NCBI RefSeq assembly: GCF_013167455.1
Contig: NZ_CP038328.1
Reading direction: 5' to 3' (one strand)
DNA: 64,000 bases
Origin: Escherichia coli O157:H7
GTDB taxonomy: Bacteria > Pseudomonadota > Gammaproteobacteria > Enterobacterales > Enterobacteriaceae
The position numbers and the translations under genes were made by a program. This document shows, one piece after another, positions 38,451-43,196 of this stretch; the stretch's first letter is position 1; each line of letters opens with the position of its first letter. The notes beneath the pieces are model-generated. The model was not told the origin of the DNA, searched no databases, and was given only the letters and a program-made list of their open reading frames with translations.

Positions 38451-39071
38451 TTAGAGGATTTCCAGCAGTTCGACTTCAAACACCAGGGTGCTGAACGGAG
38501 GGATGGATGCGCCTGCGCCGCGCTCGCCATATGCCAGTTCCTGCGGGATAGTCAGTTCCCATTTAGAACCTACCGGCATCAGAGTCAGTGCTTCAATCCA
38601 GCCAGGGATCACGCCATTAACCGGAAATTCAGCGGGTTCACCACGAGCAACGGAGCTGTCAAACACGGTGCCGTCGATCAGTTTACCGGTGTAATGAACA
38701 CGAACGCGGTCGGTACGTGCCGGAATTGCGCCTTCACCCTGGTTGATCACGCGGAATTGCAGGCCAGATTCGGTGCTATTCACACCTTCTTTTTTGGCGT
38801 TTTCTTCCAGGTATTTCACACCTTCAGCAGCCATCGCCTGGAAACGCTGACGACGAACGGCATCGGCGCGCTCGTGGATTTCACGCAGCGCGCGATGCAC
38901 CACATCAACCGGAACAGCCGGATGTTTGCCTTCCAGCGCATCGGCAATACCTGCAACCAGTGCTTCTGGCAGCAGCCCTTCCAGGCCAGATTCACTCAGT
39001 TGTTGCCCTACCTGCAAACCAATGCCGTAGCTTGCTTGCGCTTCGATGGTGTCAAAAGTTGGGGTGGTCAT
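38451..39071 (-). CDS. fklB: FKBP-type peptidyl-prolyl cis-trans isomerase, 206 aa
   Basis: ORF-track 38451..39230 trimmed to the ATG giving [20 protein letters not shown]; FKBP domain at C-terminus. Confidence 0.93.
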
Positions 39072-39288
39072 CGTATTTCCTTTCTTAGGGTATAAAGTAG
39101 CGGGCAGCATATCAGCCACACTTCTTTGGGTAAAACTTTGTCGCGGGAATGATGACAAATCCCAGGGAAAAAGAAACAATAGCAATATCCCGTATGAATA
39201 TAATAAAGGCGGGTTTACCACGGACATCATAGCGTTAGCTTATTCATAGGCTATGATTGAGGAACAAGACGCGGAGCAGGAGGAAACC

Positions 39289-39927
39289 ATGCCCGGGCGC
39301 TTTGAACTAAAACCAACCCTGGAGAAAGTCTGGCACGCACCGGACAATTTTCGCTTCATGGACCCGCTGCCGCCGATGCATCGTCGGGGGATCATTATTG
39401 CCGCCATTGTATTGGTGGTCGGATTTCTGCTTCCATCTGATGATACGCCCAACGCGCCGGTGGTGACGCGTGAAGCGCAGTTAGATATTCAGTCGCAATC
39501 ACAACCGCCGACAGAAGAACAGCTGCGGGCGCAATTAGTCACCCCACAAAATTATCCTGATCAGGTGGCTCCGGTCGCTCCAGAACCTATACAGGAAGGC
39601 CAGCCAGAAGAACAGCCGAAAACTACCCAAACGCAACCATTCCAGCCAGATAGCGGAATTGATAATCAATGGCGCTCTTACCGTGTCGAACCCGGTAAAA
39701 CGATGGCGCAGCTGTTCCGCGACCACGGACTGCCCGCTACCGATGTCTATGCAATGGCGCAGGTAGAAGGCGCGGGTAAGCCGCTGAGTAATTTGCAAAA
39801 CGGGCAGATGGTGAAAATCCGCCAGAACGCCAGCGGCGTGGTGACGGGCTTAACCATTGATACGGGGAATAATCAACAGGTCCTGTTCACCCGCCAGCCG
39901 GATGGCAGTTTTATTCGTGCGCGGTAG
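39289..39927 (+). CDS. ytfB: OapA-domain cell-division protein YtfB, 212 aa
   Basis: ORF-track 39253..39927; start set to the ATG giving [16 protein letters not shown] preceded by AGGAGG RBS; TM segment, Pro/Gln-rich linker, C-terminal OapA-like domain. Confidence 0.88.
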
Positions 39928-40061
39928 ATGAAGGGTCAACCAAAAGCCAGCTAAGGATTGTCTCTTTGATGACCTTACGTCTGGCTTCCAGTGCCTGGGG
40001 TGAAACCATACTGATGTGTTGACATCCTCCAAGCCCTGAAGGACGTGGATCCCTGCTACGT

Positions 40062-41270
40062 TCAGGCTGTCGCCTGAATCATTTCGGTGGGTTCCTGCTT
40101 CAACGGGCGGCCTGACTGCACCATCTCCCCACAGGCAAGAACGGCGTGCCCCGCCGCTAAAATGTTACGAGCGCCATTTACATCAGCGTTCGCTGTATAT
40201 CCACATGCCTGGCATCTGAATTTACTTTGTGACAGGCGATTTTCTTTCGCTGTATGACCACAGCACGCGCAACGCTGGCTTGTGTACGCTGGCGGAACAG
40301 CAAGCACCTGACCGCCACGCCAGAGCTGCTTGTACTCAAGCTGGCGGCGCATTTCATACCAGCCCTGATCCAGTATCGAACGGTTTAAACCTGATTTTGC
40401 CCGGACATTGCGCCCCGGCTGGCTGACCGTACCCGCTGCTGACTTTGACATGTTGCTGACCTTCAAATCCTCAATGACTATCATTGCGTGGTTTTTGCTG
40501 ACGGTCGTTGTGACTTTGTGAAGGTAGTCCCTGCAGATATTTGCGATACAGGAATGCAGTCGCTGTATTTTGCGTTTCTGCTTCTGCCAGTTGTTGCTGA
40601 ATTTGACCTTGCGGCTTAACTGTCGCTGAAGTCTCGCCAGCGTCTTCTGGTTTTTCTGAAAACTGTTTACAGGTCCAAAGACTGTGCCATCTGACAGCGT
40701 GGCGAGTTTAGCCACGCCAGCATCCAGTCCGACCATTAATGCTGAAGGGTGAACCGGAGTTGATACTTCATTTTCAGTCTGAATACTGATGTACCACTTA
40801 CCGCAGGACTGGCTGGCAGTGACATTTTTCACAACACCCGTGACCTGACGGCTATTCCGGTAGCGCATCCAGCCAAGTTTCGGCAGAAAAATACGGCTGT
40901 TTTCCTGATCGAGCTTAACGCCCTGCGGGTAGCGGAATGCATCATTCTGTCCCCGCTTTTTGAATCGGGGAAAAGCAGCCCGCTTCCGGAAGAAGTTTTT
41001 GTAAGCCCGCTCAAGGTCTTTCAGTGACTGTTGCAATGGCTGTGACGGGGCATCTTTAAGCCATTGCGTTTCAGTGGCATTTTTCCACTCAACCAGCCAG
41101 GAAGCCATTTTCCCGTAAGGGATGTATTTATTACCGGCCTCATGATTCTCATTCTGAAGCGCCAGAGCACGATTGAAAACGAAACGACATGCGCCTGCGA
41201 AGCGCCTCATTTCACGCTCCTGTTGACCACCGGGTCTTAACTGGAATTTAAATGCCTGTAGTCGTTTCAC
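40062..41270 (-). CDS. tnpB: TnpB (IS605 OrfB family; putative RNA-guided endonuclease), 402 aa
   Basis: Full ORF; RuvC-I ([15 protein letters not shown]), RuvC-II ([11 protein letters not shown]), zinc finger CACCGH...CQACGY and RuvC-III ([11 protein letters not shown]) all present. Confidence 0.92.
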
Positions 41271-41277
41271 AGGCCAA

Positions 41278-41709
41278 ATGATACTTTGGTCTGTGAAAAA
41301 AGAAACCGATATCCGGCGTGGAAGGCATTGTGTTTTCCTGATGCATGTTCACCTGGTCTTTGTCACCAGATACCGACGCCAGATTTTTGACCATGACGCG
41401 ACAGAAAAACTACGCACTTACTTTTCAAAGGTATGTGCTGATTTTGAAGCTGAACTGGTTGAAATGGATGGCGAACCAGATCACGTCCATTTGTTAATTA
41501 ACTATCCTCCCAAACTGGCGATATCCAGTCTGGTAAACAGCCTCAAAGGCGTATCGGGTAGGTTACTGCGACGAGATCGACCAGATATTGCAGTCAGGTA
41601 TTACTACAAAGGCGTTTTGTGGAGTCCTGGCTATTTTGCCAGTAGCTGCGGAGGTGCGCCAATATCCGCCATCCGTCAATACATTGAACAACAGCAAACA
41701 CCTGGTTAG
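41278..41709 (+). CDS. tnpA: IS200/IS605-family Y1 (HUH) transposase TnpA, ~143 aa
   Basis: HUH motif (DHVHLL) and catalytic Tyr region (SPGYFASS); divergent from tnpB with start codons ~8 nt apart; true start may be a downstream Met. Confidence 0.9.
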
Positions 41710-41765
41710 GTGGAAAACCGCGCCGTATATCCCCGCCCTGAAGGACGGGGTTTTACGGCGCACCG

Positions 41766-41985
41766 GATAAACCAGGCCAAGCGTATGCTGGTTGATCAAA
41801 TAATATCCCCCAAGCGCAGCAATATTAATATTCACCTGCAATGGGTCGATATCTGGCTTAAAAATATTGTATTTCTTCCCTTCATCCAATAAGGATTCCA
41901 TTAACTGCAAGTGCGCATGGTTGATTTCTAAGAGACGCTGTGATTTTGCATAATGCACACCTTTACTTTGATTTTCACTATGCAC
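41766..41985 (-). pseudogene. ytfA: N-terminal portion of ytfA-like ORF, interrupted by the IS insertion
   Basis: Reverse-strand frame [36 protein letters not shown]... runs from a GTG into IS sequence; a matching C-terminal frame (...[32 protein letters not shown]) lies on the other side at ~39911-40010. Confidence 0.45.
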
Positions 41986-42331
41986 AATTTTTAAAAACCA
42001 GGGGTTAGCAATATAATAATCCCATGTAAAATCAATAATTTTCTCAATGGCTTTTTGTGGCTGGTTAACCTGCTGATTAACGAATACACCGATACCGACA
42101 GCGTAGAATAATTACATACCGCACAACAAGAATGTACGGTGTAAGGCGTGGAAGTCATTTTCTCCCCGGGTGCATCGTTATATCCATAATGAGCGATTTT
42201 TGATATTAATATCTTTCACCATCCGCTATTTTCACCACTTCAGAAAACAAACTTATTTTTATTAATATCGATTTTTTTCTGTGAACATTCAGCTGCGATA
42301 TTTATAAAAACATTAAACAGGTCACATTACA

Positions 42332-43126
42332 ATGACATTACCAACCACTATTTATTCATTTCCTGCATATTTATCTCGTTTTTCGTCCACCGACAAACCA
42401 GTAAAATTAAAATTTCATCAATACGCACGCGCTACATTACTTTCAAATCGTGGAAGAGATCATAATTGCGATGGCAGACGTACTGTTGAGATCCACAAAC
42501 TAGATCTCTCAGACTGGCAAGCATTCAATAAGTTAGCAACGAAGTGTAATGCTTACGATGGAGTAACAATGAATGGTGATAATTCTTTTGGATGGAACCA
42601 TGAAGCTACATTAGATAATATTCACGCCCAGAAATACAATAAAGCTTACGCGGGTGCGAGGTTAACCGCAGAACTGAAATATTTATTGCAAGATGTCGAA
42701 TCCTTCGAACCCAACAGTAAATACACAATACACGAAGTGGTTTTGGGACCTGGTTATGGTACTCCAGACTATACCGGCCAAACGATAGGATACGTTGTAA
42801 CCCTTCCTGCCCAAATGCCTAATTGCTGGTCATCTGAACTACCAACAATCGATCTTTATATCGACCAACTTCGCACTGTTACAGGCGTTTCTAATGCCCT
42901 CGGATTCATCATTGCTGCATTGCTAAACGCGTATTCTGATTTACCCCATGATTTGAAAATTGGTCTGCGTTCCTTATCAAGTTCAGCCGCAATCTACTCG
43001 GGTTTGGGTTTCGAGCGAGTGCCGCAGGAGCGAGACATCAGTTGCGCTCGTATGTATCTAACGCCAGCAAACCATCCTGACTTATGGACACAAGAGAATG
43101 GTGAATGGATCTACTTGCGAAACTAA
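42332..43126 (+). CDS. yjfZ: uncharacterized protein YjfZ, 264 aa; AT-rich orphan
   Basis: Full ORF with AT-rich sequence and long AT-rich upstream region; no recognisable domain by eye. Confidence 0.85.
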   Translation: MTLPTTIYSFPAYLSRFSSTDKPVKLKFHQYARATLLSNRGRDHNCDGRRTVEIHKLDLSDWQAFNKLATKCNAYDGVTMNGDNSFGWNHEATLDNIHAQKYNKAYAGARLTAELKYLLQDVESFEPNSKYTIHEVVLGPGYGTPDYTGQTIGYVVTLPAQMPNCWSSELPTIDLYIDQLRTVTGVSNALGFIIAALLNAYSDLPHDLKIGLRSLSSSAAIYSGLGFERVPQERDISCARMYLTPANHPDLWTQENGEWIYLRN

Positions 43127-43196
43127 TACCTGACGAAAAATAGAAAGCAAAACGCCGACCAGTGGTCGGCGTTTTTACGTCTCGTTGAATAACGAA

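Follow-up and report, generated by a model that had tools for sequence, protein, structure and literature searches.

What happened to ytfA in Escherichia coli O157:H7, where an insertion sequence divides the gene into two pieces? A preliminary description of the 64,000-nucleotide stretch of DNA analysed here (the window), made from the letters alone, noted a ytfA-like reading frame split by an IS and concluded that the insertion had most likely inactivated the gene. The answer depends on the identity of the locus and of the element, on the exact point of insertion, and on the state of the gene that received it.

The window is O157:H7 sequence, matching strains Sakai and EDL933 at 100% over both 5.8-kb loci compared and, by megablast, at 100% identity across 2,801 bases of the region. 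Its genes follow the order fklB (-), ytfB (+), TetR fragment (-), tnpB (-), tnpA (+), TetR fragment (-), yjfZ (+), rplI (-), the reverse complement of the K-12 order rplI-yjfZ-ytfA-ytfB-fklB. Position argues for orthology with K-12 b4205, since ytfA lies between ytfB and yjfZ in both genomes, with its strand relative to the neighbours and the colinearity kept. K-12 ytfA is on the plus strand and the window is reversed with respect to K-12, so the minus-strand placement given in the preliminary description is consistent. The locus comprises the following features.

39911 to 40018, minus strand: ytfA, downstream fragment; the last 35 codons and the stop codon, 100% identical to K-12.
40019 to 41766, minus strand in the sense of tnpB (LE at 41766, RE at 40019): IS609, an IS200/IS605 element of 1,748 bp, from the Sakai annotation and the K-12 empty site.
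41767 to 42061, minus strand: ytfA remnant, upstream fragment; codons 83-180 of an intact 215-amino-acid TetR regulator.
41563 to 41985, minus strand: a 140-amino-acid chimeric open reading frame that is no gene, from the ORF list, its domain coverage and its antisense tail.

Alignment of the K-12 ytfA locus with the window gave two blocks, 39707-40018 (312 of 312 positions, 100% identity) and 41766-42354 (581 of 589, 98.6%), which have one ambiguous G in common. This two-block alignment defines an extra segment of 1,748 bp in the window, 40019-41766, without target-site duplication, and the segment coincides with the Sakai repeat_region labelled 'IS609 Family: IS200/IS605'. Once the IS is removed, the flanking pieces join seamlessly and differ from K-12 by point substitutions only: joining 41767-42060 to 39911-40018 yields 402 nt with an uninterrupted translation (...TLGLVY/HISMVSP..., the stroke marking the junction), which reproduces the K-12 ytfA pseudogene b4205 (402 nt) except for one amino acid (Y/H) within the annotated span. 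With the GTG at 41985 as its start, the joined frame has exactly 108 amino acids (73 + 35 codons), in agreement with the length of about 108 given for K-12 YtfA in the preliminary description. The minus-strand frame had likewise been traced correctly from 42111 through this GTG into the IS, and is bounded by a TAA at 42112-42114 and a stop at 41563-41565; the second frame ends at 39911 as described, but the point of resumption is the very edge of the IS, 40018, and not about 40010.

Public annotation already contains much of this. IS609 is annotated in the Sakai record, and in EDL933 PGAP flags both TetR fragments as pseudogenes, the upstream one at 41746-42060 ('TetR/AcrR... missing N-terminus and C-terminus') and the downstream one at 39911-40033; the frame of the upstream fragment remains open by chance up to 42111. 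That an IS200/IS605-family element, IS609, interrupts the ytfA frame, with the K-12 empty site aligning on both sides, agrees with the earlier proposal of an insertion in ytfA. The presence of IS609 within the ytfA remnant is a correct observation of an ordinary feature that is already in the public record. The 3' ends of the ytfA remnant and of ytfB overlap convergently by 17 nt (39911-39927), and the RE of IS609 lies 91 nt past the ytfB stop; tnpB is read in the direction of ytfB.

What is the 140-amino-acid open reading frame that spans the upstream junction? It is a chimera, as the preliminary description had recognised, composed of 73 ytfA codons (41985-41767) followed by 67 IS codons (41766-41566). 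ORF finders call it as a single frame, since the reading frame is kept across the junction and the LE lacks a stop for 67 codons. The stretch 41563-41709 is antisense to tnpA, and the tail, PVRRKTPSF..., is translated LE. A genuine fusion gene, in which a TetR_C fragment has gained a new C-terminus, has next to no probability in our judgement. The frame does have a GTG start and a length sufficient to be called, and similar chimeras, such as P0105, a ytfA-IS609 read-through of 163 amino acids with 585 member sequences, occur in public protein sets. Against this, Pfam matches residues 2-85 only, to a truncated TetR_C_29 (positions 27-110), the last 67 codons are antisense of LE and tnpA with no family match, the tail is longer or shorter according to point differences between IS copies (140 amino acids here, 163 in P0105), the frame has neither promoter nor HTH, and PGAP leaves it uncalled. 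Domain coverage and the antisense origin of the tail rule it out as a real gene. Junction-derived chimeric or fragmentary 'proteins' of this kind are numerous in public collections (P0105, P0083, P0103). In-frame IS junctions yield spurious chimeric ORFs, and caution in annotation is the practical value of this observation.

The element itself carries two intact genes and two structured ends.

41278 to 41709, plus strand: tnpA, Y1 (HUH) transposase, 143 amino acids, intact; from Pfam and NCBIfam, and named 'IS609 family transposase' by PGAP.
40062 to 41270, minus strand: tnpB (insQ), RNA-guided endonuclease, 402 amino acids, intact; from Pfam, NCBIfam and structure matches.
41720 to 41761, minus strand: LE subterminal imperfect hairpin (inverted repeat I1, 20-nt arms, 85% complementary).
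40019 to 40061, minus strand: RE with a subterminal hairpin at about 40029-40050, from direct repeat D3, its fold and the conservation of this end across copies.

TnpA matches Pfam Y1_Tnp over the complete profile (1-121 of 121; 141.5 bits, E = 1.8e-41) and NCBIfam transpos_IS200 at 145.7 bits (cut-off 55), and the TnpA proteins of ISHp608 and ISDra2 are among the closest solved structures (E of about 1e-19 to 2a6m/2vhg). TnpB is full-length with respect to its HTH, RuvC-type OrfB and zinc-ribbon (TNB) domains: the Pfam families HTH_OrfB_IS605, OrfB_IS605 and Cas12f1-like_TNB all score above cut-off, NCBIfam guided_TnpB reaches 378.8 bits (cut-off 100), and the ISDra2 TnpB structures 8h1j/8bf8 are matched with E of about 1e-52. 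The Sakai annotation gives a shorter tnpB that starts at window position 41210, but the longer form with the GTG start matches HTH_OrfB_IS605 from residue 1 onwards. The two genes are divergent, with start codons 7 nt apart (tnpB GTG at 41270, tnpA ATG at 41278). A 14-nt inverted repeat, TTTCACAGGCCAAA / TTTGGTCTGTGAAA, 93% complementary, occupies window 41265-41298 and flanks this 7-nt gap; it may be a regulatory site shared by tnpA and tnpB.

Terminal inverted repeats are absent from IS609, and subterminal hairpins are present at both ends on the same strand. Relative to shuffled controls, the DNA fold of the LE hairpin (-19.2 kcal/mol) has z = -3.6 and that of the RE z = -3.2. The cores of the two hairpins (GCCCTGAAGGACG) form direct repeat D3, 86% identical over 21 nt. 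All testable defining features of the IS200/IS605 family were found in this copy, and its identity to five further E. coli copies, each at another locus, is 97.5-98.1% from end to end. Window positions 40019-40061 would be the expected 3' scaffold end of an omega-RNA, by analogy with related elements; Rfam, searched with 39000-43000 at E <= 1, gave neither an omega-RNA nor any other RNA family. A search for a second IS609 end within the window gave none. Both tnpA and tnpB are intact in the O157 copy at the ytfA site. Elsewhere, tnpA is a pseudogene with a frameshift or an internal stop in most of the other IS609 copies examined, and tnpB is usually intact; the loci surveyed (L007, L008, L009, L011, L012 and L014) include the K-12 ydcO copy and several copies at the ytfA site.

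The insertion point and its polarity were defined by comparison of six independent IS609 sites, namely the O157 ytfA copy and copies at yedK, DUF1869/yeaR, ydcO (K-12), yfeD and DUF3251 (comparison loci L005-L009). In all six, YTTAT adjoins the LE (TTTAT four times, CTTAT twice), and the sequences flanking the RE are unrelated.

41767 to 41771, minus strand: target motif 5'-TTTAT-3', directly 5' of the LE, within the ytfA codons GTT TAT (V-Y).

Because YTTAT always lies beside the tnpA-proximal end, the LE is 41766, the RE is 40019 and the target is TTTAT on the ytfA sense strand, which places the insertion between the ytfA codons TAT (Tyr) and CAC (His). By analogy with related elements, YTTAT presumably serves both as the TnpA target and as the TAM of TnpB.

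Was the interrupted gene functional when IS609 arrived? Removal of the IS in silico restores a complete TetR_C_29 domain (profile 1-119 of 119, E = 2.5e-30), and this full match appears only after that removal. Pfam found no TetR_N HTH in the joined frame or in the 55-amino-acid ORF upstream of it. This ORF (41991-42158, in another frame) was considered as a frameshifted HTH and rejected, as it has no Pfam match and the sequence past 42061 is unrelated to the intact gene. With regard to the features of TetR/AcrR proteins, the C-terminal ligand-binding/dimerisation domain is present and the TetR_N DNA-binding domain is absent; judged from its sequence, the ytfA locus is a remnant of a member of this family and not a functional one.

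Protein searches identified the intact form, a 215-amino-acid TetR/AcrR regulator with both domains, in UTI89, Salmonella and Citrobacter, some of the Salmonella and Citrobacter orthologues being labelled KstR2-like; the full-length E. coli cluster of 215 amino acids holds 2,350 sequences at 98% identity. Over residues 83-215, the intact protein of UTI89 (WP_001298021.1) and its orthologues are 98-99% identical to the remnant in E. coli and 83-87% identical in Salmonella/Citrobacter. Residues 1-82, which hold the TetR_N HTH, and the promoter are present in UTI89 but missing from the window, as is the 3-ketoacyl-ACP reductase / enoyl-CoA hydratase / CoA-transferase cluster beside the UTI89 TetR gene. 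There, ytfA is divergent from a cluster comprising 3-ketoacyl-ACP reductase, enoyl-CoA hydratase, CoA transferase, FAD oxidoreductase and an MFS transporter.

42061 to 42062, no strand assigned: older ytfA truncation breakpoint, where homology between UTI89 and the window ends, at codon 82/83 of the intact gene.

In B2-type genomes the match to the query breaks off at this point (42061/42062). Past it, O157 and K-12 carry unrelated sequence, 42062-42331 followed by yjfZ (DUF2686). UTI89 has about 10.7 kb between the intact TetR gene and rplI; the corresponding interval in O157 and K-12 (window 42061-43196) is about 1.07 kb with yjfZ at 42332-43126. The UTI89 segment of about 10.7 kb contains an HTH/HipA toxin-antitoxin pair, an MFS transporter, IS1 and a fatty-acid/ketoacid-type catabolic cluster. 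Replacement by the yjfZ segment took away the first 82 codons of ytfA. The O157 and K-12 genes are promoterless and lack the HTH, and RefSeq accordingly marks K-12 ytfA as a pseudogene.

The distribution of the element across 5,426 complete E. coli genomes bears on the order of these changes. A synthetic join of the IS609 LE, the ytfA remnant and an intact N-terminus served as the query for IS609 in full-length ytfA, and no genome among the 5,426 contained such an arrangement. The truncated remnant with IS609 at exactly this site occurs in 1,699 of the 5,426 (about 31%). Three states of ytfA exist, intact in about 58%, truncated with IS609 in about 31% and truncated without the IS (the K-12 type) in about 10%, where the first and last percentages were estimated from rows taken at even spacing. 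A divergent TetR homologue, about 81% identical, is present in some genomes, SBF22 among them.

This distribution indicates that the IS609 insertion probably came after the truncation, or took place only within the truncated haplotype. The missing HTH in the joined frame, the pseudogene status of the K-12 gene and the count of zero among 5,426 genomes together lead us to conclude that IS609 struck an already-dead ytfA. The opposite view, that IS609 entered a functional ytfA and knocked it out, is very improbable. It can draw on the fact that the IS does split the ytfA frame, and on a K-12 remnant frame that is open for more than 150 codons and 98-99% identical to intact alleles; but the remnant is without the TetR_N HTH and the upstream region, RefSeq lists K-12 ytfA as a pseudogene, no genome carries the IS in an intact gene, and the remnant is also frameshifted in some lineages (L011). 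The inactivation by the IS that the preliminary description had put forward is unsupported, since the joined frame has no TetR_N HTH and K-12 ytfA is a pseudogene even though it has no IS, and since O157 and K-12 lack the promoter region and 82 codons at the N-terminus, and no full-length ytfA among the 5,426 genomes carries IS609.

We propose the following model. The locus was very probably shaped by two successive events, truncation of ytfA and then insertion of IS609 into the already-dead gene. In the first, the ancestral 215-amino-acid ytfA would have lost its first 82 codons with the HTH, its promoter and the divergent catabolic cluster; the yjfZ segment would have taken their place, leaving, as in K-12, a promoterless ytfA remnant that encodes the C-terminal domain. 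In the second, IS609 would have used the single-strand 'peel-and-paste' mechanism of the IS200/IS605 family to enter this remnant. The insertion, which left no target duplication, would have separated Tyr(TAT) from His(CAC), directly 3' of a TTTAT in the sense strand of ytfA. The proposed order rests on distribution, that is, on no full-length allele with the IS, rather than on a dated phylogeny. It is possible that the HTH-less remnant had a residual role in K-12-type strains.

When did IS609 arrive, and have some strains lost it? Four further lineages share these junctions exactly; their IS copies show 97.9-98.6% identity to that of O157, and their flanks have diverged to a similar degree. 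Identical junctions, together with an IS divergence of about 2% that resembles that of the flanks, argue for one old insertion that was vertically inherited. About three quarters of the truncated-haplotype genomes carry IS609 (1,699 with it and about 550 without, the latter figure from evenly spaced rows). It is conceivable that the IS allele is ancestral in the yjfZ haplotype and that the K-12-type empty sites are scarless revertants produced by precise TnpA-mediated excision. Excision of IS200/IS605 elements is seamless (bioRxiv 10.1101/2023.03.14.532601), and both the age of the insertion, with IS copies about 2% diverged, and its presence in some three quarters of the truncated haplotype are in keeping with such a history; a single insertion in a sub-lineage is simpler and fits equally well, and we regard the excision history as rather unlikely. 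Even if it holds, truncation precedes or is independent of IS609, and the main conclusion is unchanged.

The persistence of IS609 at exactly this site invites a further speculation. Models of peel-and-paste transposition and of TnpB-dependent retention have been described for related IS200/IS605 elements (bioRxiv 10.1101/2023.03.14.532601; PMC8612924). By analogy, the 3' end of tnpB and the RE would form an omega-RNA, its guide corresponding to the neighbouring sequence CACATCAGTATGGTTT... With such a guide, TnpB could cleave the joint that excision leaves in the donor, TTTAT/CACATCAG..., which would favour retention of IS609; the putative TnpB target would be TTTAT followed by CACATCAGTATGGTTTCACC. 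Persistence at the exact site might then be actively maintained by TnpB and an omega-RNA with a guide from the ytfA remnant, and K-12-type empty sites would be rare scarless escapees. We consider this improbable; if true, TnpB retention at ytfA would only illustrate, in natural strains, a mechanism that has already been demonstrated in other members of the IS200/IS605 family.

In the literature searched for ytfA and IS609, no account of this particular insertion came up; a survey reported ytfA in only part of E. coli strains (PMC6790063). That an IS interrupts a gene does not mean that it inactivated the gene, unless the gene has been checked as intact beforehand. The three states of ytfA (intact, truncated, and truncated with IS609) could offer a simple marker for E. 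coli lineages. Beyond annotation hygiene, the significance of the locus is small.

How does this locus compare with known systems? The IS609 of O157:H7 Sakai (ECs_5182/ECs_5183) and EDL933 is this very copy, with the same sequence at the same position. The TetR-family pseudogene ytfA of K-12 (b4205) has the length, frame and stop that the joined O157 fragments give; it has no insertion, whereas the O157 copy is split by IS609 between the Tyr and His codons. K-12 does possess an IS609 near ydcO, 97.7% identical to the copy described here, but its tnpA is defective. ISDra2 and ISHp608, the models for the mechanism of IS200/IS605 elements and for TnpB with its omega-RNA, encode the same protein families as IS609, and in all of these elements the target motif lies 5' of the LE. 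Unlike ISDra2 and ISHp608, in which the genes are co-directional, IS609 has divergent tnpA and tnpB genes and a different target motif, YTTAT.
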